The notes under the pieces: model-generated
The model's input: only the letters and a program-made list of their open reading frames with translations
Told to the model about the DNA's origin: nothing
Database searches by the model: none
Part shown: positions 1,130 through 31,115 of the stretch, in pieces
Position numbering within the stretch: position 1 is the stretch's first letter
Layout: each line of letters opens with the position of its first letter
Translations under genes and position numbers: made by a program
Origin: an uncultured archaeon
GTDB taxonomy: Archaea > Aenigmatarchaeota > Aenigmatarchaeia > QMZP01
Reading direction: 5' to 3'
Length of the DNA stretch: 64,000 bases
Assembly: GCA_964607835.1 (NCBI GenBank)
Contig: CAZSLL010000005.1
Span: 4,785 to 68,784, forward strand

Positions 1130-2500
1130 TCAGGTGTTCAGCACCAGGGGCCTTGAGAATATTCTCCTGAGCTTTCCGTTGGGCTTGTTGTACCTTATGT
1201 AGGCCTTGGGCATCTTGAGGTTGCCGCTCACGAGGGCCTTCAGGGGGTAGGTGATTATCCTGGTCTCCTTGGGCCTTATGTCACCAAGCTTCCATATGAG
1301 CTCGGTGCCAGCTTCAGAGCGCTTCACAAGGGGCTTCATGGCGTTTATCTCGTTGTGGGCCACATTGGCGAGGGGAGTGACCCAGTCTCTCACTATGGCG
1401 TTTGAGAGGTTGTGGTAGAAGGGGTTCCTGACCTCGAGGACCACGTGGTGCCTGGGGCCCCCTTTCTTGACATGCCTCTTGATTATCACAGGTGAGCTGG
1501 CCTTGCGCATTCCATACATGAGGAGCAGGAATACCGCCACCAGAACCAGCCCGTAGGTGGCGTATATCGGGGTGTAGTCGAGCCTGTAGGTGAAGCTCTG
1601 CGACTCGCCAACATCCAGGTCGCTGAGCACATAGGTGCATGACTTCTCGTCACCACTGAGTACACACTCGTCAGGCTCGGTAACGAAGCCTGTTATCCAC
1701 TCGTTGCTGGGGACTATCTTGCTGGCCTCATAGACCGGCTCCTTTATGTTTCCCTCATTGACCACCGTTACCTCATATTCATCATACAGCATAGTGGAGG
1801 TCTTCTTGACCATCTCGGTCACCTTGTGCACAGGAGGAACAGTAAACATGCATTCCTTCTCAACTGGCGTGCCCTCCAGGCTAACCCTCACGTTGTAGTC
1901 GCCTGCAAGGATTCCCTTGGGCAGGGGCTCCTCAAGCTCTATGAGCGTCTCTCCGTCCACAGTGACCTGCCTCGAGAACTCCCTGAGCACGGTTCCTGAC
2001 TTGTCAAGCAGGGAGAATTCCAGGCTGGCATTCCTCTCGTCCTTGGAGGTCATTAGCATGGAAAGCGTGCAGGAATCGCCTGACTTTGAGGTCCTGAACT
2101 CGGCTATGTCAAGGGGCCTCAGCACATTCAGGGTGACCTCCTGGAAGGTGCTCGCTTTTGACAGGCTGTGGGAAAAGGCGCTGACCATGTATGTGAATTC
2201 GCCTGGTGTCTCGCCTGTGGGGAAGAACTGGACGCTGAAATCAGACTCCCAGCTGCCGGGAACACTGAGAAAACCAGGGTAACCCGAAATCCATTCCTGT
2301 GGTTCGCCTGAGACCGATACGCCCAGGTTGTTCCTAAGGGCCTGGTTGTTGCTTATGGTGAAATTGAAGGTCACCTCGTCCCCAAGGTACACGTCGAGGT
2401 TGCTCTGCTCTGCCTCCATCTCCAGATAGCTGGCGGACGCAGGGACTGGTATAATAAGAAGTGAAACCAAAATCAATATGAGCAAAATGTCACGCCTCAT
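1130..2500 (-). CDS. Secreted/surface protein with N-terminal signal peptide and C-terminal TM anchor
   Basis: 456 aa. The N-terminus is hydrophobic (ILLILILVSLLIIPVPASA). A single TM segment lies near the C-terminus (GLVLVAVFLLLMYGM) and is followed by basic residues. I recognise no catalytic motif. Confidence 0.5.
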   Translation of the reverse strand: MRRDILLILILVSLLIIPVPASASYLEMEAEQSNLDVYLGDEVTFNFTISNNQALRNNLGVSVSGEPQEWISGYPGFLSVPGSWESDFSVQFFPTGETPGEFTYMVSAFSHSLSKASTFQEVTLNVLRPLDIAEFRTSKSGDSCTLSMLMTSKDERNASLEFSLLDKSGTVLREFSRQVTVDGETLIELEEPLPKGILAGDYNVRVSLEGTPVEKECMFTVPPVHKVTEMVKKTSTMLYDEYEVTVVNEGNIKEPVYEASKIVPSNEWITGFVTEPDECVLSGDEKSCTYVLSDLDVGESQSFTYRLDYTPIYATYGLVLVAVFLLLMYGMRKASSPVIIKRHVKKGGPRHHVVLEVRNPFYHNLSNAIVRDWVTPLANVAHNEINAMKPLVKRSEAGTELIWKLGDIRPKETRIITYPLKALVSGNLKMPKAYIRYNKPNGKLRRIFSRPLVLNT

Positions 2501-2591
2501 GAACTATCCGTCCTTGTGTTTGGTAATATGAATAATATTTTTAATGTATTTAAATTTGATAGAGGCCAAGTCTTGGCACAGGGTGTGTTCC

Positions 2592-3599
2592 ATGAGCTCT
2601 GAGAAGACCTCAAAGAGAAAGGGCGACCACATCAGGATTTGCCTTGAGAAGGAAGTCGAGAGCGGCAGGGGCCCTGGCTTCGACAGGTACGAGCTGGGCC
2701 ACAAAGCCCTTCCTGAGCTTGGCGAGCAGGACCTGGACACCTCAACAGATTTTATGGGAAAGAGGTTCAGGCTTCCCTTCTTCATCGAGGCCATGACAGG
2801 GGGGTCGCCGGGTACAGAAAGCATAAACAGGAACCTGGCAAAGGCAGCCCAGGAAACAGGTATTGGTATGGGCCTGGGCTCGCAGAGGGCAATGATAGAG
2901 GACACTGAGCTGAAGTACACCTATGATGTAAGGCCCGTGGCACCGGGCATATTCCTGGTGGGCAACATCGGGGCCGCACAGCTCTCCTCATATCCTTACA
3001 GCGAGATAGCCGGGCTTGTGAAGAGCATAGGAGCAGACGCACTTGCGGTTCACCTGAATGCAGCCCAGGAGATGAGCCAGCCCGAGGGCGACAGGGACTG
3101 GTCAAACGTGCTCGAGGGACTGAGAAGGCTCTGCAGCAGGGCGGGCTTCCCTGTCATAGTGAAGGAGACAGGATGCGGCATATCAGGTGACGTTGCCCTT
3201 AAGCTGGAGGGTGCGGGAGCCGCTGCAATAGACGTGGCCGGGGCAGGGGGCACCTCCTGGACAGCCGTGGAGAGCCACCGGGGGTCTGAGACAGCCAAGG
3301 CGTTCATGGACTGGGGCCTTCCCACAGCAGACTCCCTTGTTCAGTGCAGAAGGGCAGTTAAGGTCCCCCTGATTGCCTCCGGAGGAATAAGAACCGGTCT
3401 GGAGAGCGCCAAGGCCATTGCGATGGGAGCCAGCCTGGCCGGGTTCGCCCTTCCCCTCCTCAAGCCTGCCACCCAGTCAGCAGAGGCCGTGGTCAAGAGG
3501 ATAAGGCAGTATGAGAAAGAGCTCAGGAAGGCCATGCTCCTCACAGGATGCAGGACCATAAGGGAGCTCAGCCACGCGGGCGTGACCATGAGGAAATGA
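2592..3599 (+). CDS. fni: Isopentenyl-diphosphate delta-isomerase, type 2 (FMN-dependent)
   Basis: The product resembles IDI-2 over its full length. It has the Gly-rich FMN/NAD(P)H-binding segments GIGMGLGSQR, LIASGGIRTG and VAGAGGTSW, plus the TIM-barrel signature. I chose the start at the internal ATG (MSSEKTSKRKGDH...). Confidence 0.85.
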   Translation: MSSEKTSKRKGDHIRICLEKEVESGRGPGFDRYELGHKALPELGEQDLDTSTDFMGKRFRLPFFIEAMTGGSPGTESINRNLAKAAQETGIGMGLGSQRAMIEDTELKYTYDVRPVAPGIFLVGNIGAAQLSSYPYSEIAGLVKSIGADALAVHLNAAQEMSQPEGDRDWSNVLEGLRRLCSRAGFPVIVKETGCGISGDVALKLEGAGAAAIDVAGAGGTSWTAVESHRGSETAKAFMDWGLPTADSLVQCRRAVKVPLIASGGIRTGLESAKAIAMGASLAGFALPLLKPATQSAEAVVKRIRQYEKELRKAMLLTGCRTIRELSHAGVTMRK

Positions 3600-7161: not shown

Positions 7162-7965
7162 CTAAAGGAGAACCCTTTCTGGCCTCACCCTTCCCTGCTC
7201 CAGCCTGGCCAGAAGCCCCAGCCTTCCCTGGGTATCGTAAAGAGCGAAAAGCGCCTTTGGCATGCTGCCTTCAAGACCGGGAACCTGCTCTGCAGGAAGC
7301 TTTGCTCCCTGCCTGAGCCTGTCCAGGACCGGCCCTTCCACAGTGAACCCCGGGAAGCCCACCCTATCCAGCGCTATCTCCACAGGGAACAGGCATTCCG
7401 GCCCCCGGCTCCGGAGCTGGTCAAAAGTGCAGGCCTCCTCTATCCTGAAGGGGCCTATGGCGGTCCTCCTCAGCCAGGCCATGTGGGCCCCTGCCCCGAG
7501 GTCCTCTCCGATGTCATGGCAGAGCTTCCTTATGTATGTCCCTGCCTCGCAGCTCGTGCGGAAGCGCACCTCCCGGCCCTCCACAGAGAGCACCTCGAAG
7601 GAGGTCACCTTTCTCTGCCTCTCCCTTCTGGCCACAGCGCTCCTTCTTGGAGGAACCTGGGTTATCAGCCCCGTGAACTTCCCGGCAGACCTGGCTATCT
7701 GGTCCTCTGAGAAATCGCCGTGCACCCTCATTGAACCCTCGTATTCCTTGTCCAGGCCCAGGAGAACGGGCATGGCCTTGGTGGCCTCGTCAAGGGCTAT
7801 GAGCATGAGCCCGGTAACAGAGGGGTCAAGGGTTCCTGAGTGTCCCGCCTTCCTGGTTTTGAGAATGGCCTTGGCCTTCTCAACGCACTGCATGCTGGTT
7901 AGCTCTCTGGGCTTGTCGAGCAGGAGTATTCCCCTGCTCACCGGGTTTGGGCTATTCCCTGCCAT
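7162..7965 (-). CDS. cbf5: tRNA/rRNA pseudouridine synthase Cbf5 (TruB family, H/ACA RNP catalytic subunit) with a C-terminal PUA-like region
   Basis: It contains the TruB/Cbf5 catalytic motifs LLLDKPRELTSMQCV and HSGTLDP. Confidence 0.8.
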   Translation of the reverse strand: MAGNSPNPVSRGILLLDKPRELTSMQCVEKAKAILKTRKAGHSGTLDPSVTGLMLIALDEATKAMPVLLGLDKEYEGSMRVHGDFSEDQIARSAGKFTGLITQVPPRRSAVARRERQRKVTSFEVLSVEGREVRFRTSCEAGTYIRKLCHDIGEDLGAGAHMAWLRRTAIGPFRIEEACTFDQLRSRGPECLFPVEIALDRVGFPGFTVEGPVLDRLRQGAKLPAEQVPGLEGSMPKALFALYDTQGRLGLLARLEQGRVRPERVLL

Positions 7966-8058
7966 GATACATATTTAAATACCTAGTTAATATGTTATTA
8001 GACCATGGCACCTGTGTGCTGGTTTTTGGCCTGATTCGGATTGGGCCGGAGGATTTAA

Positions 8059-8256
8059 TATGGCAAAGAACAAGTTCCCTGAGGCCGAGTCCAGGCTCTT
8101 CCAGAGGGTGTTCATCTGCATGAGATGCGGCATCAAGAACAGGGGAGACCTCATCAAGGTCAGGCAGGGGAAGGTCAAGTGCAGGAAATGCAAGTCCAAG
8201 AGGCTCAGGCCAATACACAAGGACACCAAGAGCTGATGCCGGGGGCATGCTTTTAA
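8059..8256 (+). CDS. rpl40e: Ribosomal protein L40e (zinc-ribbon)
   Basis: I translated it by hand as [54 protein letters not shown].... It matches the L40e pattern FPEAExRLF...CMRCG...CRKC...LRP. It is not in the ORF track. Confidence 0.55.
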
Positions 8257-8291
8257 GGCGACCCCGGGCCAATGTTTGAATGAGTGATAGA

Positions 8292-8549
8292 ATGGGAAGG
8301 ACATACTACAAGAGGGGATGGTCCCACACCAAGACCAGGGGCAAGGAAGGAAGCGTGACCTGCGGGTTCTGCGGCAAGAGGGTGCCAAGGTACAAGGCAT
8401 TCCCCACATTCAAGGGATTCTCCCTGAGCGACCCTGTCATAAAGGCAGAGCTCGGGACAAAGGGAAGGAGGCTCAACCTCTCCTCGCAGAAGGTTTACGC
8501 CTGCCCCGCGTGCGCAAGGCACAGGAACATAGTCAGGAAGAAGAGATAA
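8292..8549 (+). CDS. rps26e: Ribosomal protein S26e
   Basis: It has CGFCGKRVPRYKA...YACPACARHRNIVRKKR, which corresponds to the S26e signature CxxCxxxVPKDKA...YCVSCAIHSKVVRNR. I placed the start at MGRTYYKRGW. Confidence 0.6.
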   Translation: MGRTYYKRGWSHTKTRGKEGSVTCGFCGKRVPRYKAFPTFKGFSLSDPVIKAELGTKGRRLNLSSQKVYACPACARHRNIVRKKR

Positions 8550-8602
8550 TCTCTGGTTTTGTAAATAATAACCCTTATTACCGGGAAAGAACAATTATAA
8601 AC

Positions 8603-9481
8603 ATGGCTTTCGGCGCTTACAAGCGGCTCTCTGTGAGGGTTTTCGGAGGGTTCGCAAAGTCCTCTGAGAACAGCTTCAGGTCAATCGGGCCCTGGATGAA
8701 AGGGGCGGGCATCCACATGCTCGCAAGGACCTACATCTCCATGATTTACATGACCACTGTGCTGGCCTACATAGCGGGGCTGGCAACCGCGCTGGTTCTG
8801 AGCTCCCTTTTCGTGGAGGACCTGGTCATGATGGTGTACTACGTGACCTTCGGGCCTGTTCTCGGGGCCTCGGTTGTGTTCATGCTGCTGTATATATACC
8901 CGTCGAGCAGGTACAAGTCGGCCAGGAGGTCCATTGACAACAACCTCCCATTCGCGCTGATACACATGGACTCAATCTCCTCCTCAGGCATTCCAACGGA
9001 GTTTATGTTCGAGCTCCTGGGCAAACTGAAGGAATACGGGGAGATATCCAGGCAATCCAGACTGGTCATGAGGAACATAAAGACCTTTGGCATGAGCTCC
9101 ATAAGCGCTATCAACGACGTGGCAGAGAAGAGCCCGTCGCCTGCATTCAGGCAGGTCCTGACCGGAATCAGCTCCACGGTGGGGAAGGGAGGGAACCTCT
9201 CCGGTTACCTGAAGGAGATGAGCGAGAAGAACCTATTCGAGTACAGGATGAGTAGAGAGAAGTACGTCAAGACACTATCGACTTACGCGGACGTATACAC
9301 GGCTGTGCTGATAGCTGCCCCGCTCATGTTCCTTTCTGTGCTGGTCATGATGAACGTGATAGGGGGGGATGTGCTGGGAATGGCCATACCTGACTTCATA
9401 AATCTCATGACATATGTCATCGTGCCTGCCATGAACATCGGATTCCTGGCCTTCCTGCACACCAGCCACCCGGGAAGTTAA
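8603..9481 (+). CDS. FlaJ/TadC-like polytopic membrane protein (type IV pilus/archaellum assembly platform)
   Basis: The profile is multi-TM with a cytoplasmic domain between TM1 and TM2, typical of T2SS-F/FlaJ. It is convergent with the FlaI-like ATPase. I placed the start at the internal ATG (MAFGAYKRL). Confidence 0.6.
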   Translation: MAFGAYKRLSVRVFGGFAKSSENSFRSIGPWMKGAGIHMLARTYISMIYMTTVLAYIAGLATALVLSSLFVEDLVMMVYYVTFGPVLGASVVFMLLYIYPSSRYKSARRSIDNNLPFALIHMDSISSSGIPTEFMFELLGKLKEYGEISRQSRLVMRNIKTFGMSSISAINDVAEKSPSPAFRQVLTGISSTVGKGGNLSGYLKEMSEKNLFEYRMSREKYVKTLSTYADVYTAVLIAAPLMFLSVLVMMNVIGGDVLGMAIPDFINLMTYVIVPAMNIGFLAFLHTSHPGS

Positions 9482-9564
9482 AGCAATATCAGATTATTAC
9501 TTAATGCAGAACAGCATGCCAATGACAATAAGGAAGGCCAAACCCAGGAATGCGCAGCTCTGAA

Positions 9565-11481
9565 TCACTCTTTGGGATTTGCTTTCTTCTCCGCTTTCTG
9601 CGCGGGAGCTGCTGACTCCTCCGCTTTCTGCGCGGGAGGATTTGCTTTCTTCGGGGGTGACTCTTTTTCCTCCCCTCTCTTCGGGGGTGACTCTTTTTCC
9701 TCCCCTCTCTTCGGGGGTGACTGCTGTTTACTGGAAAGCTCAGACTCTGCCAGTTCCTCGTAGTCCTCGAGTACACCACTGATGCCATTTCTCCCGGGCT
9801 TATGCCTGGGCCTGGGCTTCTTCTTTGAGGCTGCCTCCTTGGCATGCTTCTCGGCATTCTCGGCCTTCTTAACCCTTTCCTTCTTGAATGGGGTTCTGTT
9901 CTCCCTGACCCATTTCATCACAGTAGGCTGGTCCTTGTAGTAGAGGTTGATAATCCTGCAAACGTCATGGAAGTACACAACAGAATGGGCCTGCATCCAT
10001 TCTATAACCTTCTTCCGCCTCTCGAGCTCTTCGCTCATCCTCCCGAAGGCCAGCCCCTCTTCAAATGATATCCTCTGGAGAATCTCAGAGCTGCCCGTGC
10101 TCTCCCTGTATACGTCCTCAGACGGAATCCAGGAGAATGACTCCTTGGTATGGGCCCGCCCTGTGTGGGAATCCACTGACTGGATTTCCACTATCCTCTT
10201 GACCCTTCTGGATGATTTGCCCTTCTCCTTTGCGTTGGTCATCACGACCATGGCGTCCAGGGCCTCCAGAAGGGAGGGCGAGAGCTCTATGGGAGGGGTA
10301 CTCAACCTCTTTATGACGTCTTCCACAGAGCCTGCGTGTATGGTGCCAAGCGAGGCGTGGCCCGAGGCCATTCCCTGGAACATGACGTAGGCCTCTTTTC
10401 CCCTGACCTCGCCCACCACAACGTATGACGGGTTCTGCCTGAAGGACTCTCTGAGAAGGTCGTAGAGCCCTATCTCCCCGTACCTTTTCCCGTTCGCCTC
10501 TGGCATACCGAAGCCCCTTCTGGATACCGATGGAATCCAGTTATCGTGGGGCAGGTTGATTTCCCTTGTGTCCTCGATAGAGATTATCTTGTCCTCGGGG
10601 GGTATGAACATGCTTATGGCGTTCAGGAAGGTGGTCTTTCCGGTGGAGACGCCCCCGCATATCATTATCGAGACATTGTACTGGCAGAGCAGCCAGAGAT
10701 AGGCAAGCATGGATGATGATACAGTGCCCATGTTTAGGAGGTCTATGGGCGAGAACGGGTGGCTCCTGAACTTCCTTATCGAGAAGCTCGGGCCCTTGGT
10801 GGTGACGTCCTTTGCCAGCGAGGCCTGCACCCTGGAGCCGTCCGGAAGGCTTCCGTCGAGCAGGGGAGACGCGTAGGATATGTACCTTCCGCACCTCTCA
10901 GCAATCTTGATTACCAGGTCAGAGAGGTAGTCATTGTCCCTGAAGGTAAGATTGGTCCTTATGGAGCCGAATACCTTATGAACCACGTATATCGGGCTTC
11001 CCACGCCGTTGCAGCCTATGTCCTCTATGTAGGGGTCGTGCATCAGGGGCTCTATCTCGTTGAGGCCTATGAAGTCACGGGCTATGTAGTACATCACCCT
11101 CTGGAAGGGCTTCCCGCCGAGGGTGAGGCCGAGCTCGTCAATGGCCTCCACGACCTTGCCCTGGAGATAGGACAGGGTCTTCTCGTCCTTCTGGAGGCTC
11201 TCCAGCTTGACGTCTATGACCTCCCTGAGGGCCTCCTCTATACTTGATATGGCCTTGTGCTCAGCAGGCCTGAGGCCAGGCTCCTCCAGGCTGTACAGAA
11301 GGGACTTCTCTTTCTGTGACCACTTTATCCTGGCGTGGGCATGGGGATCTATAAGGGGGTACCTTACATCAACCTTTGATGCGCTCTTGAATCCTGGTAT
11401 AACTACCAGCTTCTTGGGCTCCCTGAAGGAGAGAGGCTTATATCTCTTCTCGCTTTTCCTGAACAGACCCCTGAGCGCCAT
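9565..11481 (-). CDS. FlaI/VirB11/PilB-family secretion ATPase with a C-terminal Lys/Glu-rich repeat extension
   Basis: It has Walker A GGVSTGKTTFLNA, the Asp and His boxes, and Walker B VVVGEVRG. The C-terminus carries repeats (SPPKRGEEKESPPKRGEEKE...APAQKAE) encoded by the dispersed DNA repeats. Confidence 0.8.
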   Translation of the reverse strand: MALRGLFRKSEKRYKPLSFREPKKLVVIPGFKSASKVDVRYPLIDPHAHARIKWSQKEKSLLYSLEEPGLRPAEHKAISSIEEALREVIDVKLESLQKDEKTLSYLQGKVVEAIDELGLTLGGKPFQRVMYYIARDFIGLNEIEPLMHDPYIEDIGCNGVGSPIYVVHKVFGSIRTNLTFRDNDYLSDLVIKIAERCGRYISYASPLLDGSLPDGSRVQASLAKDVTTKGPSFSIRKFRSHPFSPIDLLNMGTVSSSMLAYLWLLCQYNVSIMICGGVSTGKTTFLNAISMFIPPEDKIISIEDTREINLPHDNWIPSVSRRGFGMPEANGKRYGEIGLYDLLRESFRQNPSYVVVGEVRGKEAYVMFQGMASGHASLGTIHAGSVEDVIKRLSTPPIELSPSLLEALDAMVVMTNAKEKGKSSRRVKRIVEIQSVDSHTGRAHTKESFSWIPSEDVYRESTGSSEILQRISFEEGLAFGRMSEELERRKKVIEWMQAHSVVYFHDVCRIINLYYKDQPTVMKWVRENRTPFKKERVKKAENAEKHAKEAASKKKPRPRHKPGRNGISGVLEDYEELAESELSSKQQSPPKRGEEKESPPKRGEEKESPPKKANPPAQKAEESAAPAQKAEKKANPKE

Positions 11482-11518: not shown

Positions 11519-12211
11519 TCATCTCATTTTCATGAGGGCCTCTTCGTCCGGGTAGACCTCTATGCCCTTTCCTGTTATCCTGTAGGGGTGAAGCTTCTCT
11601 GAGTGATTGGAGCCCCTGACCTTCCACACCTGGATTGCCCTTGAGAATGCTGACTGAATCCTCTCGTAGTAGAGCACCACGACGCTGTCTGTCACGAACT
11701 CCTCCACACCGTAGCGTGATATGCCCCGTGTGCCGGGAACTATCTCGCTCACCAGGAGGGAGGTGCAGCCGAGCTTCCTGAGTATCATGGAGAGGTCGAA
11801 TATCATTTTCCTGAGCTCTGAGTCATCCTTTACGTGAAGCCCCAGGGCTGAGATGGAATCCACCACCACCCTCTTTGCCTTGACCTCCCTTACCTTTGAC
11901 TCCAGGATGTCGAAAACCTCCTCTATGTGGTAAGGGTCGTACTTGATGAAAGCAAAATCCCCGCTCTTCTCCAGGGAGGCCAGGTCCCAGCCGAACTCCT
12001 TGACGTTCTCCTTTATGGCTTCAGCGGGCTCCTCGAAGGAGAGGTACACGCCCTTCTCCTTGAACTTTCTGATTCCCTCGTATATGAACTGGGTGCAGAA
12101 AGTGGTCTTTCCCGTTCCGCTCGTGCCAGTGATGAGTGCCAGCTGCGCCTGGGGTATGCCTCCGCCCAGAATCTTGTCCATGCCCGGTATTCCGGTCTTT
12201 AGCTTGTCCAT
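11519..12211 (-). CDS. KaiC/RecA-superfamily ATPase (FlaH-like)
   Basis: It has Walker A GTSGTGKTTF and a KaiC-like fold signature (GIPGMDKILGGGIP). It sits directly upstream of, and co-directional with, the FlaI-like gene. Confidence 0.7.
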   Translation of the reverse strand: MDKLKTGIPGMDKILGGGIPQAQLALITGTSGTGKTTFCTQFIYEGIRKFKEKGVYLSFEEPAEAIKENVKEFGWDLASLEKSGDFAFIKYDPYHIEEVFDILESKVREVKAKRVVVDSISALGLHVKDDSELRKMIFDLSMILRKLGCTSLLVSEIVPGTRGISRYGVEEFVTDSVVVLYYERIQSAFSRAIQVWKVRGSNHSEKLHPYRITGKGIEVYPDEEALMKMR

Positions 12212-12265
12212 CTTGACACTGTATATAATTGCACGCCGGGTTAAAAATAACACCAGCGGGAGGCA

Positions 12266-12634
12266 TCATCCAATTATCCTGCCAATCTTCTTCGCAGACC
12301 TCTCCATGTTCATGAGAACAAGGCCGATGTTGACCTTGGGCTTCACGAGCACAGTGAGGATGACGTCAGGGGTGGCCCCTATGGACACAAGCTTCCCGTT
12401 TGCAGACTCCACGACGACCTGGATGAACTTTCCTATGCTAAGCTCGTTGCTGGCTGTTTCTCCTGTCCCCACTATGGCCGCGGTCATGGCTGCCACTGCC
12501 TTTGAGTTCACGTCCTCGGGAAGGCTGGACAAAACCATGAGGCCGTCCCTTCTGACCACCGCGGCCCCCTTTATGTCAGCAGCTGACTGGAGCTCGTCCA
12601 GAAGAGCCTTCAGTTCCTCTTCCTTGGTTGACAT
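12266..12634 (-). CDS. Roadblock/LC7-domain protein (MglB-like)
   Basis: 122 aa with a Roadblock/LC7-like pattern (GAAVVRRDGLMVLSSLPED...AAMTAAIVGTGE). Confidence 0.7.
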   Translation of the reverse strand: MSTKEEELKALLDELQSAADIKGAAVVRRDGLMVLSSLPEDVNSKAVAAMTAAIVGTGETASNELSIGKFIQVVVESANGKLVSIGATPDVILTVLVKPKVNIGLVLMNMERSAKKIGRIIG

Positions 12635-12646
12635 TGCATGACCTCC

Positions 12647-13813
12647 TCATATCTCCCATTTCTGCCTCTTGAGCACTATGTCAAAGAGCTTGTCAAGTGC
12701 CTTGTCTGTCCCTTTATTCTTCACGGCAACAATGCCAACAGCGGGATAGCCAAGCTCCTTCTCTATCTTTTTAGGGGACAACGCCCCCTTCATGTCCTGT
12801 TTGTTGGCCAGGACAAGAACAGGTATGCCCTTTGACTTTATCTTCCTGAGCATCTGCTTTGCCCTCTTTATGCTATCGGGCTGGGTGGAGTCCACCACCA
12901 GGAGAATGCCCAGCGTGCTCTTGGAGAGCATCTGGAGGGTCCAGTCAAACCTCTCCTGCCCGGGGGTGCCAAACAGGTCCACTGACATGCCCTTCTTTTC
13001 CACGTGACCGTGGTCCAGGGCTATGGTGGTGCCCATCCTGTCTATGCTAACAGGCCTCTGGGAAAGGGCCTTCACCACAGAGGACTTGCCAGCGTGGAAG
13101 GGGCCTGTCACGAGTATCTTCGGGATGTACATGGAAATGCCCGAAGGCGTTATCTCAAAGGGTATGGCGAACTTGAGCCTTGGCTTATGAACATAAAGCT
13201 GCTTGAGCACGAGTCCCTTGCTGTCAAAGGCCTTGAGCCATATCACATAATCAAAGCACTTGGCGAATCGCTGTATGTTGCTTGGCTTGAAGCCTATGTT
13301 GGCCATCAGGTAATATGAGATTGTCCTGGTGTCCCTGAGGTCCTTCTCAGTGTCCTTCAGGAACCTTTCCACATCGCTCCAGTGGCCTACCCAGAAATCC
13401 AGGGAATCGAACACAGCAGTGGTGCCATACCCCTTCATGCTCTTCAGGGCATTCCTGAAGACCTTCTTGGACTTCTCTATGTAAGGCCTTACGTTTATGG
13501 TCTTCTCATCTATCGAGTAGCTCTCCCTGCTCTTCCTTCCCAGGCTGTAGGATATGCCGTCTATGAAGGACATCTTGCTGCTGAACCTCTGCCAGCCGGA
13601 TATGTTCTGCTTTATGTAGTCAGGGGTCTTGTTGTTGATGAAGTATATGCCGTTGTCCCCCTCCTTCAGCCTGCTCGCCATGATGCTTATGCCGAACATG
13701 GCCTTGTCCACGAGCATGTCTGATATGACCAGGACCCTGGAGCCGTCCTCGAATCCGCCGTCAAAGAACTCATCGAGCTTGGGAATCGTGGTGGAGACTT
13801 TCATATGGCTCAT
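12647..13813 (-). CDS. Fusion of a degenerate KaiC-like domain (no P-loop) with a small Ras-superfamily, MglA-like GTPase
   Basis: The C-terminal 150 aa have G1 GPFHAGKSS, G3 DLFGTPGQE and G4 NKQD. The N-terminal domain is KaiC/RecA-like but lacks Walker A. Confidence 0.65.
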   Translation of the reverse strand: MSHMKVSTTIPKLDEFFDGGFEDGSRVLVISDMLVDKAMFGISIMASRLKEGDNGIYFINNKTPDYIKQNISGWQRFSSKMSFIDGISYSLGRKSRESYSIDEKTINVRPYIEKSKKVFRNALKSMKGYGTTAVFDSLDFWVGHWSDVERFLKDTEKDLRDTRTISYYLMANIGFKPSNIQRFAKCFDYVIWLKAFDSKGLVLKQLYVHKPRLKFAIPFEITPSGISMYIPKILVTGPFHAGKSSVVKALSQRPVSIDRMGTTIALDHGHVEKKGMSVDLFGTPGQERFDWTLQMLSKSTLGILLVVDSTQPDSIKRAKQMLRKIKSKGIPVLVLANKQDMKGALSPKKIEKELGYPAVGIVAVKNKGTDKALDKLFDIVLKRQKWEI

Positions 13814-13904
13814 TGATTAATTGTCGGGCCGGTCTTAAATACATTCGAGGGGGCCATTTTTCAGGGTATGATTTATAATGAATCGAGACGAATAATATCA
13901 TAGT

Positions 13905-14600
13905 ATGAAGAGCGCGACAGGAATTAAGAAGCTGGACGCCCTGCTTAAGGGGGGGTTCCCTGACAACTCCACCATACTGGTGAGGGGCGCCACAGGAACC
14001 GGCAAGTCAACGCTCTGTCAGCAGTTCATAAGGTCAGGCCTGAATACCTCCCAGCCCGCTGTTTACATAACCCTTGACACCTCCCCGGAGGACATACTCG
14101 AGAACATGAAGAGGTTCGGCGGGGGAATGGAGAAGTTCCTCACCAAAAAGGGAATGGTTTTCCTTGATGCTTATTCATGGAAAACGGGTGGGGGGAAGGA
14201 TGAGGACTGGAAGAGGGTTCTGAGGGGAGGGCTTGACATAAACAGCATAAATGTCATGCTCTCTGACATACTCAGGGAGCTAGACAGGGATGGCAAGAGG
14301 AGCGTTTTCGACTCAGTCTCAACGCTACTGCTCTACATACCCGTGGAGCTGGTGGTCAGGTTCATCCCAATCCTCATAGCAAAGTGCAAGCAGGCAAAAT
14401 CAACCCAGGTCCTCATACTCGAGGAGGGTGTCCACGACAAGGAAATCGTCAACACCATGGCATATCTCTCAGACGGGGTGATAGAAATGAAGCAGGAGGG
14501 CAACAAGAAAATGCTCAGGGTCAGCAAGATGAAGGGAATCTCCTGCACCAGGGACTGGATGGATTACGACATCAAGGAATCAGGCCTTGAGATTGCCTGA
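13905..14600 (+). CDS. KaiC/RecA-superfamily ATPase
   Basis: It has Walker A GATGTGKSTL and a KaiC-like architecture. It is divergent from the GTPase gene. Confidence 0.7.
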   Translation: MKSATGIKKLDALLKGGFPDNSTILVRGATGTGKSTLCQQFIRSGLNTSQPAVYITLDTSPEDILENMKRFGGGMEKFLTKKGMVFLDAYSWKTGGGKDEDWKRVLRGGLDINSINVMLSDILRELDRDGKRSVFDSVSTLLLYIPVELVVRFIPILIAKCKQAKSTQVLILEEGVHDKEIVNTMAYLSDGVIEMKQEGNKKMLRVSKMKGISCTRDWMDYDIKESGLEIA

Positions 14601-14997: not shown

Positions 14998-15158
14998 TTC
15001 CCGCATTGCTCTGTCAAATAAGAGGGATATTTATCAGAATCCCAATCTTTATAAGCAGGGAAACCAAATGCAGTAACATTCAAGCCACTCCTGGTTACGC
15101 GTCGGATTGCATTGCACTGGAGTGTGTGCAGGCGCCCGAGGCGCCTGAAGGAGAGAAT

Positions 15159-16367
15159 ATGCACGACAAGGAAAGCCAGCTAAGGGCCCTGATAAAGGAG
15201 CTGGAGGGCATAAAGGGAAGGCACACCGAACTGGTGACAATTTACGTACCTGCTGGTTTCAACCTCGACAAGGTGGCCGAGCAGATAAAGCAGGAGCAGG
15301 GGACTGCACAAAACATAAAAAGCAAGGCAGTGAGGAAGAACGTGCTGGGCGCGCTTGAGAAGATTATACAGCATCTGAAGCTTTACAGGCAGACCCCTGA
15401 GAACGGGATTGCTATATTCTGCGGCAACGTGTCTGACAAAGAGGGGGTCACTGACCTGGAGATATGGGCAGTGGAGCCCCCTGAACCGCTGAAGACCAGG
15501 CTCTACAGGTGCGACCAGGTGTTCGTCATGGACCCCCTCAAGGAGATGGTGAGGGAGAAGGAGCTCTACGGCTTCATTGTGCTGGACAAGTCAGAAGCAT
15601 CAATAGGCATGCTCAGGGGAACCAAGATGGTGAAGCTCAAGGACATGGAATCAGTGGTCCCCGGCAAGACCAAGGCAGGAGGCTGGTCCCAGGCCAGATA
15701 CGCCAGGGTAAGGGAAGGCCTTCTGAACGACTTCCTCAAGAAGGTGGGGGAAGTGGCCTCCTCAGAGTTCAAGGACAACAAGGACATACTGGGCATTGTC
15801 ATCGGAGGCCCTGGTCCCATAAAGGAGCAGTTCGCTGATGGAGATTTCATTCACTACGAGGTCAAGAAGAAGGTAGTGGGCATAGTCAACACATCCTACA
15901 CAGGCGAGTACGGCCTGAGGGAGGCCGTGGACAGGGCAGAGGACCTCATATCCGAGGCATCTGTCATGAAGGAAAAGCGGGTTCTGGAGAGGTTCTTTGA
16001 CGAGTTCGGGAAGGACAGCGGGCTGGCTGTCTACGGCTTCAAAGAGGTCACGGACGCAATGAAGCAGGGAAACCTGGAGATTCTCATACTATCGGAGAGT
16101 TTCGACTGGGTGAGGGCCGGACTTGAATGCGCCTGCGGATTCAGGACCAGCAAGGTGCTGGAGAGGGGCCAGCTCGATTCACAGCACTGCCCAGAGTGCA
16201 ACCAGAGGCTCGAGGTCACGCAGGAGAAGGAGCTCACAGAGGAGCTGATACAGCTCGCTGAACAGATGTCCACTACCGTGGAGATTGTCTCAGTCAACAC
16301 AGGAAGGGGCGAGCAGGTCAAGGAGCTTGGCGGTATAGTGGGCATTCTAAGATTCAGGCAGGAATAG
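15159..16367 (+). CDS. prf1: Peptide chain release factor aRF1 (eRF1 homologue)
   Basis: The NIKS motif is present (TAQNIKSKAVRKN), and eRF1 domains 2 and 3 plus a C-terminal zinc ribbon are recognisable. The GGQ loop reads AGGWSQARYAR. The stop codon is TAG. Confidence 0.85.
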   Translation: MHDKESQLRALIKELEGIKGRHTELVTIYVPAGFNLDKVAEQIKQEQGTAQNIKSKAVRKNVLGALEKIIQHLKLYRQTPENGIAIFCGNVSDKEGVTDLEIWAVEPPEPLKTRLYRCDQVFVMDPLKEMVREKELYGFIVLDKSEASIGMLRGTKMVKLKDMESVVPGKTKAGGWSQARYARVREGLLNDFLKKVGEVASSEFKDNKDILGIVIGGPGPIKEQFADGDFIHYEVKKKVVGIVNTSYTGEYGLREAVDRAEDLISEASVMKEKRVLERFFDEFGKDSGLAVYGFKEVTDAMKQGNLEILILSESFDWVRAGLECACGFRTSKVLERGQLDSQHCPECNQRLEVTQEKELTEELIQLAEQMSTTVEIVSVNTGRGEQVKELGGIVGILRFRQE

Positions 16368-16373
16368 GCCTCG

Positions 16374-19300
16374 TTAAGAGGAGCCCCAATTGCTCTTTAG
16401 GTTCTCCCACGTGAGTTCCTGGTTGTTCCTTTTGAAGTAGTACCAGAGCACCAGGACAACCGCCAGTATGACAATCCCTATCAGTGAGAGTAACCACCAG
16501 GGAAAGCCCCCGCCGTCTTGCGGTGTGGACTGATCCCCGCAGCCCTCGTCTATCTGGCCGTCGCAGTCGTTATCTATGCCGTCCCCGCAAATCTCTGTGG
16601 AGGGGAATATCGCACCCACGCAGTCGCTCCACTGGCCGTCCACGCATGTGGATGAGCCCAGGGCGCAGACCCCCATATTGGACTCCCCGCAGGGCTTTGT
16701 TTCGCCCTCGCTGATGCACTCGCAGCCATTGTTGACCGTGCCATCACAGTCATCGTCCCTGGAGTTTCCGCAGTCCTCTGTGGCCATGGGGAAGATTGCT
16801 CCCTCGCAACGGGTCCATTCCCCGTTAATACAGTCCCTGGAGCCGAACTCGCATATGCCGTAATCAGTGTCAGGGCCGCATGGGGAACCGGAAAGGTCCT
16901 CGTCAACCTCCCCGTCGCAGTCGTCGTCAAGGCTGTTGCAGGCCTCTTCCTCAGGGAGCTGGCCTCCCTCGCATCCCCCCCACATGCCGCTGGGAAGGCA
17001 TGTCCTGTTCCCAGTTCCCCTGCATATCCCCTGACCGTATGCCACCCCGCCGTCTTCTGGGTTGCAGGGCCTGACGTCGCCTGGCTCGCACTCTATGACC
17101 GAGAAGTTGAACGTGCTCTCCCCTGTGTTCTGGTTGACGTCTGTCCTCACTATGGAGAATCCGGTCTTGTCCACGTAGGTCTCGTAGGGAATCTCCCAGG
17201 AAAGGGTCCACTGGGTATCCCCGCTGGAGCCTGTCCTCTGAACCGGCTCCACTTCCTCATCCCCCATCAACAGGGAGACGTGGTCGATTCCTGACTCGTC
17301 GCTCACAATGGCGTTCACAAGCATGGGCTGGTAGTCTGATGATGCCACCTTCTTCGAGTACTGCGGCTCGTCATTGTCAATCTCAGGGGCCTTCGAGTCT
17401 ATGCGGGTGCCCACAATATCTGACCAGTCGCCCTTGTTGCCTGCCATGTCAAAGGCCTGGCAGGAGAAGTAATATGTACTGTTGTGCAGGCCCGTGAAGA
17501 GCCTTGAGGGCTCCTCGATGTCTGTCCAGCCCGAGGTGGGAGAAGTGCAGGGAGAGGGCTCTGATTTTATGCAGAGATCGTATTCCTTTATTCCTGAGCC
17601 AGTGTCCTGGCCTGACCAGTTGAGCATGAACGTGGTCTTGTTAACCACAGGGGGGAGGCTGGAAATATCACAGGAAGGCGGGAACGAGTCGATGACAAAA
17701 TCCTTGGTGTCAGCCTGGCTTGGGTTACCAGCCAGGTCAAAGCCGATCAGGGTAAAGGAGTATTCTCCTCCCTCTGCGCCTTCATACTCGAGGGATTTAA
17801 CCGACCCTCCGAGATGCCGGTAAAATTCACCATCAAGCCTGACGACATAGTAATCCATTCCCATGTCTTCCTGGGCCTCCCATGTGAGAGTGAAATTGCC
17901 CTGATTACTGTATCCAGTGTCGCTTCCTGTGAAAGAGACAACCGGCGGAACCGTGTCAAGTCCCATTGAGTGCATGCCTATAGAGGACGTAACGGTATTC
18001 CCGCTCCTGTCATAAGTTGCCTCGCATTCGAACCTGTACAAACCGTCATCATCCAGGGTAACGTCGCGTGTGGTCTGGGACTCTTCATTAATCGTGAATG
18101 AGTCAACGAACTCCTGGTAGGTGGAGCCACCGTCAAGGCTCCTCTTTGCCTGTATGCTGTATTCCACGAATGTGCTTCCTGAAACCGGGTCTTCGGAAAC
18201 CCACTCAAGCGTTGTTGTGGTCTTGTTGTTGTATTCAGGAAGATTTACAAACTCGCAGGTCGGAAGGTTCCTGTCAATAGTCACATGAAGGGATTTGTGG
18301 CCTTCCTCGTTGCCCACGTAATCCACTGAGTAGAACTCTGTGTAGTAATCGCATGTTTCCCCGTCCGGACAGTCAGAGCCAACGGTGACAGGGTCAGAAT
18401 ACTGCTCAAAACCAGAGCATTGGGTTGCGTCCCTGGCGTGGCACAAAAGGGTTTCAGCCACACCCGATCCCGCGTCCTGCGCGCTAAGCTTGATTACGAA
18501 CTCCTTTCCAACCGTTGTCCCGTCCCCCGGGCAGTCAACGCATGTTGTCTCGGGAGGTTCGGAGTCCCCCCATGTGCCTGAACTGCAGTAGCCCACGTCC
18601 TGGAGTGAGCTTCCGTCGCTATAGCATACGCCGCTGAAGACGCAGCTTCCCTCAGAAGGGCAGCATGAGATGTCATCAGTGCTCTCAGAGCAGACGCCTG
18701 TTCCGGCGTCAATGCAGTAGGAAAGGAATTCATCGCTGTCGTCCCCGCAGCAGCAGTCTGTCTGGTCGCCATCGTCAATGGGGTCGCAGTCGATACCGCC
18801 CGGGCCCCATGCATCGGCCCCCTCTGTGCACTGGCAGGCTTCCTGGTGCTTGTCCATATCAAAGTCGTCTGAGCTCGAAAGGCACATCTGCGAACTGTCC
18901 AGGCATTCGCCCACGAACTCGTACTGGTCATCGCCGCAGCAGCAGGAGGACTGGTCGCCGGACTCATCAGGGTCGCAGTCTATTCCGCCGATGCTCCATT
19001 TTCCCTGGCCGTGTCCGCACTCGCACCAGCCCTGTTCTGAGTCAAAGTCCACGAAATATCCCTCTACCGGTTCGGGGCCAAGCACTTCATAGGTGTTGTC
19101 AGTGAAAAAAACCTTCAGGGTTCCGTTGTACTGGCCCTCGTCAGGGCAGAAGGTGTAGCCTAGGCTGGTTGAGAATACAAAGGGGTCTTCGAGGGTAAGG
19201 CATGTGCCAGAGGTCTCGATATCAAGGTCTATTTCATTGCTGGTGGAGCCTTGGGCTGATATGAGTGTAAGGGTCATGCTGTCAACATCGCACACCTCGC

Positions 19301-19433
19301 ATGGGTCATCAGGAGTCCCCTCGCAGTCAGCGAAATCTGAAATCACGACACCGGATAGTGAGGAAAGAGCGATGGCGATGGATATCAAAGAAAGCATCGT
19401 GAGTGTTCGAATGCTCATAACATATATTTGCAT
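16374..19433 (-). CDS. Large Cys-rich cell-surface protein with internal repeats, MopE-like metal-binding motifs and a C-terminal TM anchor
   Basis: It has a signal peptide and a repeated module GGIDCDPxDxGDQxxCCCGDDxxEF. Four C-terminal repeats carry CxxxDDDCDG. A TM helix (WWLLSLIGIVILAVVLVLWYYF) lies near the C-terminus. Confidence 0.6.
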   Translation of the reverse strand: MQIYVMSIRTLTMLSLISIAIALSSLSGVVISDFADCEGTPDDPCEVCDVDSMTLTLISAQGSTSNEIDLDIETSGTCLTLEDPFVFSTSLGYTFCPDEGQYNGTLKVFFTDNTYEVLGPEPVEGYFVDFDSEQGWCECGHGQGKWSIGGIDCDPDESGDQSSCCCGDDQYEFVGECLDSSQMCLSSSDDFDMDKHQEACQCTEGADAWGPGGIDCDPIDDGDQTDCCCGDDSDEFLSYCIDAGTGVCSESTDDISCCPSEGSCVFSGVCYSDGSSLQDVGYCSSGTWGDSEPPETTCVDCPGDGTTVGKEFVIKLSAQDAGSGVAETLLCHARDATQCSGFEQYSDPVTVGSDCPDGETCDYYTEFYSVDYVGNEEGHKSLHVTIDRNLPTCEFVNLPEYNNKTTTTLEWVSEDPVSGSTFVEYSIQAKRSLDGGSTYQEFVDSFTINEESQTTRDVTLDDDGLYRFECEATYDRSGNTVTSSIGMHSMGLDTVPPVVSFTGSDTGYSNQGNFTLTWEAQEDMGMDYYVVRLDGEFYRHLGGSVKSLEYEGAEGGEYSFTLIGFDLAGNPSQADTKDFVIDSFPPSCDISSLPPVVNKTTFMLNWSGQDTGSGIKEYDLCIKSEPSPCTSPTSGWTDIEEPSRLFTGLHNSTYYFSCQAFDMAGNKGDWSDIVGTRIDSKAPEIDNDEPQYSKKVASSDYQPMLVNAIVSDESGIDHVSLLMGDEEVEPVQRTGSSGDTQWTLSWEIPYETYVDKTGFSIVRTDVNQNTGESTFNFSVIECEPGDVRPCNPEDGGVAYGQGICRGTGNRTCLPSGMWGGCEGGQLPEEEACNSLDDDCDGEVDEDLSGSPCGPDTDYGICEFGSRDCINGEWTRCEGAIFPMATEDCGNSRDDDCDGTVNNGCECISEGETKPCGESNMGVCALGSSTCVDGQWSDCVGAIFPSTEICGDGIDNDCDGQIDEGCGDQSTPQDGGGFPWWLLSLIGIVILAVVLVLWYYFKRNNQELTWENLKSNWGSS

Positions 19434-26423: not shown

Positions 26424-27701
26424 TTACTTCTTGTCCACAGGCACGAGGTCTATGATTATGCCCGCGGCGATTGTCTTGCCCATGTCCCTGATTGCGAACT
26501 TGGCGAGCTGTGGGAATTCGCTCTGCTTCTCAACCGCGAGCGGCTGGGTCGGAACGACCTTTATCACAGCTGCGTCACCGCTCTTCAGCATGTCAGGGTT
26601 CTCCTCGATAGTGGCCCCGGTCTGCGGGTTAATCTTCTTCACTATCTCGGATATCTTGCATGCCGCGTGCGCGGTGTGTGTGTGGAACACTGGCGTGTAT
26701 CCCTTGGTGAGCACGGTCGGGTGCTGCAGGACGATTATCTGTCCGGTGAATTCCTTGACAACCGTTGGGGGGTTGTCAGGCCTTCCGACGACATCGCCTC
26801 TCTTTATGTCACCCTTTCCTACTCCCCTTACGTTGAAGCCCACGTTGTCTCCGGGCCCGGCCTGTGGAACCTGCTTGTGATGCATCTCCACGGACTTGAC
26901 CTCTCCTGTTGCTCCGCTGGGCATGAATACCACCTTTTCTCCGGGCTTGAGAAGTCCTGTCTCAACCCTTCCCACCGGGACTGTTCCCACACCTGTGATG
27001 GTGTAGACGTCCTGGACAGGCAGCCTCAGCGGCTTGTCTACGGGCCTCTCAGGGGCGTTGAGCTTGTTCTCAAGGGTTCCGATAAGGGTGTCCTCCTTGT
27101 ACCATGCGAGCTTGTCGGATTTCTTGGCTACGTTGTCTCCGACGTATGCTGACACAGGCACGAAGGGAACCTGATCTGTCTTGTACCCCAGAGAGCTGAG
27201 AAGCTTTCCTACCTGCTCCCTGACCTCGTTGTACTTGCTCTCATCGTAGTTAACAGCGTCCATCTTGTTCACTGCCACCACGACCTGGTTTATTCCGAGG
27301 ACCTTGGCCAGGTACATGTGCTCCTTGGTCTGCTCCTGCACACCGTCCTTTGCCGAGACAACCAGTATTGCGGCGTCTGCCTGGGAGGCACCGGTAATCA
27401 TGTTCTTGATGAAGTCCCTGTGCCCGGGCGCGTCGATTATTGTGATGTAGAGCTTGCCCGTGTCTATGGGCTTGTACATCAGGTCTATGGTTACGCCCCT
27501 CTCCCTCTCTTCTTTGAGGTTGTCCATGACAAAGGCGAACTCGAAGGTCTCCTTCTTGAGCTCCTTTGCCTTTTCCTTCAGCTTCCTGAGCTCCTGCTCC
27601 GGTATGGACCCGGAGTCGAAGAGAAGCCTTCCTATCAGCGTTGACTTTCCATGGTCAACGTGACCTATGGTTACCACGTTCATGTGGGGTTTATCTGCCA
27701 T
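26424..27701 (-). CDS. tuf: Translation elongation factor aEF-1 alpha
   Basis: It has [17 protein letters not shown] and NKMD, with full-length identity to aEF1A. Confidence 0.95.
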
Positions 27702-30903: not shown

Positions 30904-31048
30904 GCGGGAGTGTCCGAGCGGTCAAAGGGGCAAGGTTGAGGGCCTTGTGGCTTAGAACCCTTTTACAGGAGCCAAAGCGTCCGCAAAAGCGTTCGCGGAA
31001 AACCCGTAAAGGGGTAAGCAATGCCTTCGCAGGTTCGAATCCTGTCTC
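30904..31048 (+). tRNA. tRNA-Leu(GAG) with an insertion of about 66 nt in the variable arm that carries the conserved core
   Basis: The folded parts are acceptor GCGGGAG/CTCCCGC plus A, a class-II D-arm (GAGCGGTCAAA), anticodon stem CAAGG/CCTTG with loop TTGAGGG, and an intact T-arm GCAGG-TTCGAAT-CCTGT. The insert is AGAACCCTTTTACAGG...CCGCAAAAGCGTTCGCGGAAAACCCG.... Confidence 0.6.
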
Positions 31049-31115
31049 CCGCATTACACCTTTCTTTACAGGAGGTCACGACCTTCCTCAAGAAAGCCGT
31101 GGGAAAGAAATAATA

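Follow-up and report, generated by a model that had tools for sequence, protein, structure and literature searches.

The Gly-Gly-Gln (GGQ) tripeptide of class-I peptide chain release factors belongs to the small number of motifs that are said to be universal in translation. It is common, by convergence, to the bacterial factors RF1 and RF2 and to the archaeal and eukaryotic factors aRF1 and eRF1 (a/eRF1), and its Gln is methylated by dedicated enzymes in each of life's three domains. For a/eRF1, the motif has been called universally conserved (PMC2613156). Hydrolysis is catalysed by the backbone amide of the Gln (PMC6742477), and its side chain has been given a packing role, with methylation adding van der Waals contacts with U2506, A2451 and A2452 (PMC5799190). 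In catalytically dead relatives, that is Dom34/Pelota and most baeRF-1 families, the loop decays (PMC6514570, PMC2613156). Whether the Gln side chain serves catalysis, water selection or packing has been debated for more than 20 years on the basis of mutants, structures and simulations. Here we report on a stretch of 64,000 nucleotides (nt) from an uncultured archaeon of the Aenigmatarchaeota (positions 4,785 to 68,784 of contig CAZSLL010000005.1, hereafter the window), whose aRF1 gene encodes Trp in place of this Gln. Our full-text search of the literature found no description of such a GGW release factor.

An earlier reading of the bare sequence (hereafter the original prediction) had proposed an aRF1 with the eRF1 architecture and the NIKS motif intact, and with GGWSQ standing where GGQSA is expected. 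The features of the gene are the following:

15159-16367, + strand: aRF1 coding sequence, class-I peptide chain release factor; ATG start at 15159, TAG stop at 16365-16367, 402 amino acids (aa)
15150-15155, + strand: Shine-Dalgarno-like box GGAGAG, read from the sequence, 4 nt upstream of the ATG at 15159
15312-15323, + strand: NIKS stop-codon recognition motif (TAQNIKSK); N, I, K and S invariant in alignment A2
15504-15524, + strand: YxCxxxF stop-codon recognition motif (YRCDQVF); Y116, C118 and F122 invariant in A2
15678-15686, + strand: GGW tripeptide (G174, G175, W176) replacing GGQ; Trp codon TGG at 15684-15686
15687-15707, + strand: S177-Q178-A179-R180-Y181-A182-R183, first helix turns after the loop; R180 and R183 are the invariant rRNA-binding arginines
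16341-16355, + strand: C-terminal GILRF, counterpart of GILRY; G391, G392, I396, L397 and R398 conserved in A2

Both parts of this proposal held up. First, the protein scores 461.6 bits against the TIGR03676 aRF1_eRF1 equivalog (cut-off 234.7), exceeds the cut-offs of all three Pfam domains eRF1_1, eRF1_2 and eRF1_3, and has its best match in the Protein Data Bank with the archaeal aRF1 4af1 (E 5.5e-79). An AlphaFold2 (AF2) model built with 64 homologues as input reached a mean predicted local distance difference test score (pLDDT) of 90, and a Foldseek search with this model ranked aRF1 and eRF1 structures at the top, 4af1 first, with a template-modelling score of 0.80 to the eRF1 of the eRF1-eRF3 ribosome complex 5lzt. 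The three-domain eRF1 architecture, NIKS, YxCxxxF, the Gly-Gly pair, the Arg-rich helix and GILRF, whose GILRY counterpart has been implicated in the eRF1-eRF3 interaction (PMC2613156), are all intact. The GGQ-minidomain residues S165, K170, G174, G175, S177, R180 and R183 are invariant in A2, while V167, P168 and G169 reach a conservation of 90% or more in that alignment and do not vary inside the GGW clade.

Second, residues 173-183 read AGGWSQARYAR (nt 15675-15707), encoded across the motif by GGA GGC TGG TCC CAG; the TGG lies just upstream of 15688-15705, the segment to which the original prediction had pointed. When aligned by phmmer with 4af1 and human eRF1, the protein shows no gap over dozens of residues before and after the motif, and W176 falls exactly on the Gln of GGQ (query kaGGWsqaryar, 4af1 rkGGQsaqrfar, human eRF1 GGQsalrfar). 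Moreover, the AF2 helix spans residues 176-205 and begins at W176, as it does at the Gln in eRF1. The ungapped alignment on both sides and the position of the helix start rule out an alignment shift peculiar to this lineage, which had been offered as one explanation, and related sequences likewise have W rather than Gln at the canonical position when aligned with aRF1 and eRF1 orthologues. From the family signature, the Gly-Gly pair is kept and the Gln is replaced by Trp176. Judged from these alignments, the window protein is an aRF1 orthologue by descent that departs from the catalytic signature of its family.

The window aRF1 is represented in a public database by entry P0001, 453 aa long and starting from the TTG at 15006. 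Its homologues are 400-405 aa long and align from Met1 of the 402-aa form. Because of these lengths and of the GGAGAG box, we prefer the start at the ATG at 15159, and the 51 N-terminal residues of P0001 (15006-15158) are probably not translated.

A first homologue search retrieved 120 proteins 59-100% identical to the window aRF1, the named ones being Aenigmatarchaeota. The motif could be scored in 118 of them and reads GGW in 109 and GGQ in 9. W176 is invariant across all 109 GGW homologues, as are G174, G175, S177, R180, R183 and the upstream VPGK, and few parts of the protein are as conserved as the catalytic loop; the aromatic residue at +5 from the Gln position is mostly Tyr in GGW forms, not Phe. 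At the DNA level, TGG is fixed in five loci (the window and four others), with flanking Gly, Ser and Gln codons that differ synonymously. Among all the sequences fetched (n = 407), 151 have W, F or M at the Gln position and 246 have Q; GGW itself was found in 141. These data indicate that strict purifying selection maintains the Trp throughout a deep clade made up mostly of Aenigmatarchaeota.

A sequence error, also raised by the original prediction, is ruled out by the more than 140 independent homologues with GGW, which come from NCBI, JGI, ENA and Logan. Taken more broadly, a sequencing or assembly error, a frameshift artefact or a pseudogene has nothing in its favour except the prior expectation of a universal GGQ, and is hardly credible given an unbroken reading frame, homology on either side and an identical protein encoded on an independent Logan assembly contig. 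As far as sequence comparison can tell, GGW is a real, selected variant, and the protein with it is the only stop-codon release factor detected for this archaeon in the sequences covered.

We then considered whether the GGW gene occupies the place of a canonical aRF1 gene. The neighbouring genes that bear on this point are:

7162-11481, - strand (T2SSF-like gene at 8318-9481, + strand): TruB-like, T2SSF-like and T2SSE genes, syntenic with the GGQ-type locus L012
11519-12253, - strand: KaiC/RecA-like ATPase, 244 aa, a conserved aRF1 neighbour in GGQ-type relatives that marks positional orthology

The gene order TruB, T2SSF, T2SSE, KaiC-ATPase, aRF1 is common to the window and to L012, a GGQ locus on a 263 kb contig, with tblastn identities of 45% for TruB, 48% for T2SSF and 57% for T2SSE, and a protein identity of 57% for aRF1. 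In addition, a tblastn search with the antisense KaiC-like open reading frame (ORF) matched the ATPase region of L012, L001 and L002, and a KaiC/RecA-like ATPase of about 230 aa adjoins aRF1 in L002, L003, L004 and L012. The GGQ relatives (P0102, P0036, P0279 and others) are 64-69% identical to GGW forms, which equals the similarity among themselves. Since the gene lies at the same chromosomal position as the GGQ aRF1 gene of sister lineages, gene order identifies it as the positional orthologue of canonical aRF1 and not as a spare paralogue.

With respect to copy number, the 64 kb window contains one eRF1-like ORF only. No large contig (1.1 Mb, 665, 420, 297, 271, 264, 209 and 198 kb, and others) occurred twice in the hit lists of GGW or GGQ queries, a search that covers paralogues at least about 59% identical to a query.

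These observations bear on the alternative that the GGW protein is an inactive decoder, which would read stop codons or occupy the A site, or be regulatory, and leave hydrolysis to a second aRF1, an aVLRF-1-type hydrolase or a Pth-like enzyme. Textbook data that make GGQ essential speak for it, and a gene for the ribosome-quality-control protein NFACT lies 5 kb away, although such genes are common in archaea and this one proves nothing. We regard this alternative as very unlikely: the gene is positionally orthologous to canonical aRF1; its GG pair, Arg helix and whole loop are strongly constrained, unlike the decayed loops of the inactive families; and no second close aRF1 was found on any large contig, the 1.1 Mb one included. 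By analogy with eRF1 mutants, a release-dead stop-codon binder is expected to be dominant-negative, and the small genomes typical of the group make an added factor less likely.

Pelota/Dom34 and the inactive baeRF-1 proteins share with the window protein their superfamily and the absence of the canonical Gln. They differ from it in having lost GG, NIKS and YxCxxxF, and in a loop that is variable in length and poorly conserved. NIKS, YxCxxxF and GG are all present in the window aRF1, which scores 81.5 bits against the pelota model TIGR00111 (cut-off 177.65).

To see how far the replacement extends, we searched 1.84 billion cluster representatives. W at the Gln position was found in several lineages, F in three representatives, M in eight, E in two (P0247 and P0252) and S in one, the intein-bearing P0214; the E and S forms are distant aRF1/eRF1-like proteins. 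A scan of reference genomes with the window protein, based on poorly conserved peptide patterns, also recovered L005, an Aenigmatarchaeota genome with GGW, and L006, a GTDB genome with GGM and a mini-intein. One of the W lineages forms a robust second GGW clade with the motif PSKHTKGGWSQ[RK]RFER. Its seven distinct members share only 38% identity with the window protein, and few of the genes around them have Pfam annotations. Another GGW protein, P0236 (GGWSQARFAR, 351 aa), was identical in two metagenomes. Thus, the Gln position is less invariant in archaeal aRF1 than the literature states.

We built neighbour-joining (NJ) trees from 375 extein sequences with the motif columns removed (100 bootstraps) and applied Fitch parsimony to the classes Q, hydrophobic and other. 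This gave 12-19 state changes with a median of 14; because the trees were built by NJ alone and have a star-like shape, these counts of independent origins are approximate. In the core clade (identity of 55% or more; 127 GGW, 17 GGQ and 1 GGF), 3-7 state changes were needed. A single origin of the hydrophobic state without reversal does not find support in these trees, and they indicate that W, F and M replacements arose repeatedly in other archaeal aRF1 lineages.

Several observations were made around these genes. The P0236 gene (L009, 1-11395, and L010) has as neighbours a phage-type integrase, a recombinase and a series of small ORFs that no Pfam model matched; it may belong to a mobile element or adjoin one. 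Na+/H+ exchanger-TrkA_N genes lie 1-8 kb upstream of aRF1 both in L001 (2253-3899), from an Aenigmatarchaeota GGW genome, and in L007 (6100-9416), from the second GGW lineage; this shared neighbour may be a coincidence or a hint of kinship between both lineages. A scan of viral contigs returned seven eRF1-like loci, six with GGQ and one with GGS (L017, about 8461), unrelated to the GGW clade. In the viral eRF1-like genes L015-L018 (IMG/VR), NIKS and GGQ stand in different frames about 380 nt apart (about 8079 and 8455), perhaps owing to a frameshift or an intron.

The original prediction described the Gln as displaced by two residues, referring to Q178 of the window aRF1. This description stands in part. 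Ser-Gln follows W, F or M in every independent lineage (GG[WFM]SQ in 20 of 20 independent-lineage representatives), whereas GGWSAN and GGWSAS forms exist that have no Gln at +2. Counted over all the sequences fetched, amides downstream of the Gln position are distributed as follows:

W, F or M at the Gln position (n = 151): Q at +2 in 114; N (or Q) at +3 in 32; no amide at +2 or +3 in 4
Q at the Gln position (n = 246): Q at +2 in 69; N (or Q) at +3 in 35; no amide at +2 or +3 in 142

The remaining one of the 151 hydrophobic sequences is the mis-spliced P0133, which reads SQR. Of the 109 GGW homologues of the first search, 82 have Q and 27 have A at position +2, and 67 have A, 27 have N and 15 have Q at +3. 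GGWSAN occurs in 32 sequences with pairwise identities down to 56%, which suggests that it is old or recurrent. GGWSAS, without an amide at +2 or +3, occurs in four sequences with 88-97% mutual identity and about 90% identity to their GGWSQA and GGWSAN sisters, and appears to be a young sub-lineage. These four break a strict rule of one amide in the loop (Q at the Gln position, Q at +2 or N at +3), which had been perfect in the first 118 sequences and was rejected. Because GGWSAN and GGWSAS exist, the downstream Gln is favoured and not obligatory; across the clade the invariant feature is the Trp and not the downstream Gln, which indicates that the downstream amide is dispensable.

One may argue from the same counts that the catalytic Gln has been relocated, so that Q178 would reach the scissile ester and replace the lost Gln with the Trp as a tolerated spacer. 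The enrichment of Q at +2 in hydrophobic over GGQ forms, the Ser-Gln in all 20 independent-lineage representatives and the N at +3 in 32 of the 36 sequences that lost Q at +2 all point in this direction. Furthermore, the closest GGQ relatives of GGF forms read GGQSQQ, which fits a path from GGQSQ to GGFSQ, and Q at +2 may have been a permissive pre-existing state. There is also a precedent for a displaced Gln in the documented GGxSQ of aVLRF-1 and acVLRF-1 (PMC6514570). Nevertheless, we consider a relocated Gln rather unlikely. First, GGWSAN (n = 32) and GGWSAS (n = 4) do without Q at +2, and GGWSAS without an amide at +3 too. Second, a spacer would vary, yet W is invariant. Third, the loop is not lengthened, since it aligns without gaps to GGQ factors, whereas the VLRF-1 loop is longer. 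Fourth, Q178 lies two residues into the helix of the AF2 model and, by ideal helix geometry and not by measurement on the model, would point about 200 degrees away, on a different face.

Beyond the GGxSQ form of GGWSQ, the window protein shares with aVLRF-1 and acVLRF-1 (Burroughs and Aravind 2019, PMC6514570) an RNase-H-fold catalytic domain. It differs in being a full aRF1 with stop-reading and GTPase-binding domains, in its canonical loop length, and in a clade that does not keep GGxSQ throughout, as its GGWSAN and GGWSAS members attest. Pfam acVLRF1 scores 53.5 bits on domain 2, where eRF1_2 scores 132.6, and NF041024 scores 47.4 (cut-off 125). A VLRF-1 or Pelota identity was rejected on these low scores and that of TIGR00111, the likeness to VLRF-1 being limited to the local GGxSQ pattern.

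In 59 homologues, an intein of 130-577 aa sits exactly at the junction of the residue at the Gln position with the Ser next to it (GGX|C...HN|S). These include P0058, P0086, P0121-P0126 and P0129; L006 has an intein-bearing aRF1 gene at 1488-3083. Some contain Intein_splicing, LAGLIDADG and helix-turn-helix (HTH) domains and others are mini-inteins, and their C-terminal sequences come in two flavours. Their hosts have Q, W, F, M or S at -1. The window aRF1 is without intein, its GGW and Ser being contiguous. Our literature search found no paper on inteins in aRF1.

It is suggestive that an intein homing site coincides with a position that flips by multi-nucleotide changes. The extein changes on either side of the insertion (CAR to TGG at -1 and GCN to CAG at +2) could accordingly be by-products of an altered homing target or splicing context, or of co-conversion, that persist after intein loss. 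A change from Q to W takes at least two nucleotide changes, with Arg or a stop codon as the intermediate, and none of the sequences reads GGR; this, the 59 inteins at exactly this boundary and the repeated flips of state on the tree speak for such an origin. However, W neither prevents nor requires an intein, given the range of residues found at -1, and in the distant GGW lineage the flanks are lineage-typical beyond the five motif codons. In addition, P0150 (GGF) has the intein flavour of its GGQ neighbour P0194, which points to a change in situ rather than to transfer. We rate the by-product explanation as quite improbable; it covers the origin and spread of the replacement and not its function, and is compatible with an active GGW factor. 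Intein co-conversion as the cause of the coupling between W and SQ was rejected because the flavours do not track the residue at -1, and it is kept as a minor evolutionary alternative.

We consider it probable that the GGW protein is the organism's genuine omnipotent class-I release factor, with the Gln of GGQ replaced by Trp. Such a factor would enter the peptidyl-transferase centre and trigger peptidyl-tRNA hydrolysis, with catalysis provided by the special backbone conformation of the Gly-Gly pair and by the main-chain NH of residue 176. Its bulky hydrophobic side chain would assume the packing and water-shielding role of N5-methyl-Gln against U2506, A2451 and A2452 (E. coli numbering), a pocket that W, F and M alike could occupy with no need of methylation. 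An amide downstream (Q178, or N179 in GGWSAN) would be a favoured but dispensable helper that may order the water normally coordinated by the Gln carbonyl. The rest of the minidomain, VPGK..GG.S..R[YF].R.RE, is intact in the window aRF1, and the parts needed for stop-codon reading, GTPase binding and access to the peptidyl-transferase centre are, by their conservation, under strong purifying selection. The altered release chemistry suggested by the original prediction is possible.

What is known of engineered factors bears on this proposal in both directions. A title cited in PMC12440015 reports that Gln substitutions in human eRF1 do not abolish activity entirely. Laboratory mutants of eRF1, RF1 and RF2 have the identical residue replaced, and for several substitutions their activity in vitro is reported as reduced and not abolished. 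They are engineered and generally deleterious, whereas GGW is natural, fixed, conserved and recurrent in free-living lineages.

Several points weigh against an active GGW factor. Yeast Q182E could not be propagated even beside the wild-type gene, and substitutions were poorly tolerated (PMC12440015); GGQ mutations inactivate bacterial release factors according to reviews (PMC8131318). The water-coordination model uses the side-chain carbonyl of the Gln (PMC5799190), and Trp lacks this carbonyl. The association of Q at +2 with hydrophobic residues (114 of 151 sequences, against 69 of 246 GGQ forms) suggests that the downstream Gln is more important than a mere helper. Finally, there may be a divergent second aRF1 elsewhere in the genome, and the approximate counts of independent origins should be borne in mind.

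The replacement also bears on methylation. In Haloferax, Mtq2 methylates the GGQ Gln of aRF1 (PMC6144793), and this enzyme is stated to be present in all archaeal phyla (PMC6144793, PMC5372719). Because a GGW factor has no Gln at the target position, it cannot receive this N5-methylation, and Mtq2 is predicted to be lost or retargeted in GGW lineages. In the window and the 12 fetched loci we detected no NPPY-type methyltransferase, a result that applies to those loci only and not to the whole genome.

Compared with canonical aRF1 and eRF1, the window protein thus has the same three domains and fold, NIKS, YxCxxxF, Gly-Gly, post-loop Ser and Arg and GILR[FY]. Its gene has the chromosomal position of the sister GGQ genes, in a genome with aEF1alpha and use of all three stop codons. 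The differences are an unmethylatable Trp in place of Gln, a +5 residue that is mostly Tyr in GGW forms, not Phe, and the strong enrichment of Q at +2.

Further features of the window concern translation and the surroundings of aRF1:

26424-27701, - strand: aEF1-alpha (Pfam GTP_EFTU, D2, D3 and eEF1A_C), stop codon TAA
21229-23463, + strand: NFACT, 744 aa, Rqc2/NEMF/RqcH homologue, 5 kb downstream of aRF1, stop codon TAG
59215-60615, + strand: RtcB
30904-31053, + strand: Rfam tRNA, 150 nt, 39.8 bits, presumably with a long intron
11519-12253, - strand: the KaiC-like ATPase, first member of a P-loop cluster between T2SSE and aRF1 (11519-14600)
12266-12634, - strand: unannotated 122-aa ORF of this cluster
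12647-13813, - strand: KaiC-like N-terminal part fused to a small Arf/Ras-like GTPase, same cluster
13905-14600, + strand: second KaiC-like ATPase, same cluster
16374-19433, - strand: 1019-aa Cys-rich protein with a signal-like N-terminus, fn3/Big, repeated CxxDxDCDG (MopE-like) and a C-terminal membrane anchor

Archaeal aRF1 is delivered to the ribosome by the GTPase aEF1alpha (PMC3467058), and by analogy the aEF1-alpha of the window is a candidate partner of its aRF1. Conserved full-length genes of the window end with TAA (aEF1alpha and RtcB), TAG (NFACT and aRF1) or TGA (T2SSE). Since all three stop codons terminate such genes, there is no hint of an altered genetic code, and this explanation was rejected. 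GGQ-type relatives have a single ATPase where the window has the P-loop cluster. The gene for the Cys-rich protein is convergent with aRF1, with 6 nt between the stop codons. ARAGORN found no tRNA across the 64 kb window, where Rfam found the one listed.

We lean slightly towards the view that a whole archaeal radiation, that is most Aenigmatarchaeota-type lineages and several unrelated DPANN-like ones, terminates translation without a Gln at the catalytic position, with W, F or M acting in its stead. In that case, peptide release in vivo would require neither the Gln side chain nor its N5-methylation, and the position would have switched between Gln and a bulky hydrophobic residue on many occasions, possibly aided by intein homing at the codon boundary. 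The natural GGW, GGF and GGM lineages offer a direct handle on the role of the Gln side chain. If GGW factors are active, the side-chain amide would be unneeded in vivo and a hydrophobic plug could replace methyl-Gln; if their activity depends on the Gln at +2, the catalytic Gln would have been re-registered in the loop, which would tie aRF1 to the Vms1-like factors with GGxSQ. In both cases, the predictions are that Mtq2 is lost or retargeted and that the peptidyl-transferase centre has compensatory changes, and the family would provide ready-made variants for eRF1 engineering. For annotation, pipelines and motif checks that require GGQ would wrongly mark GGW genes as defective.

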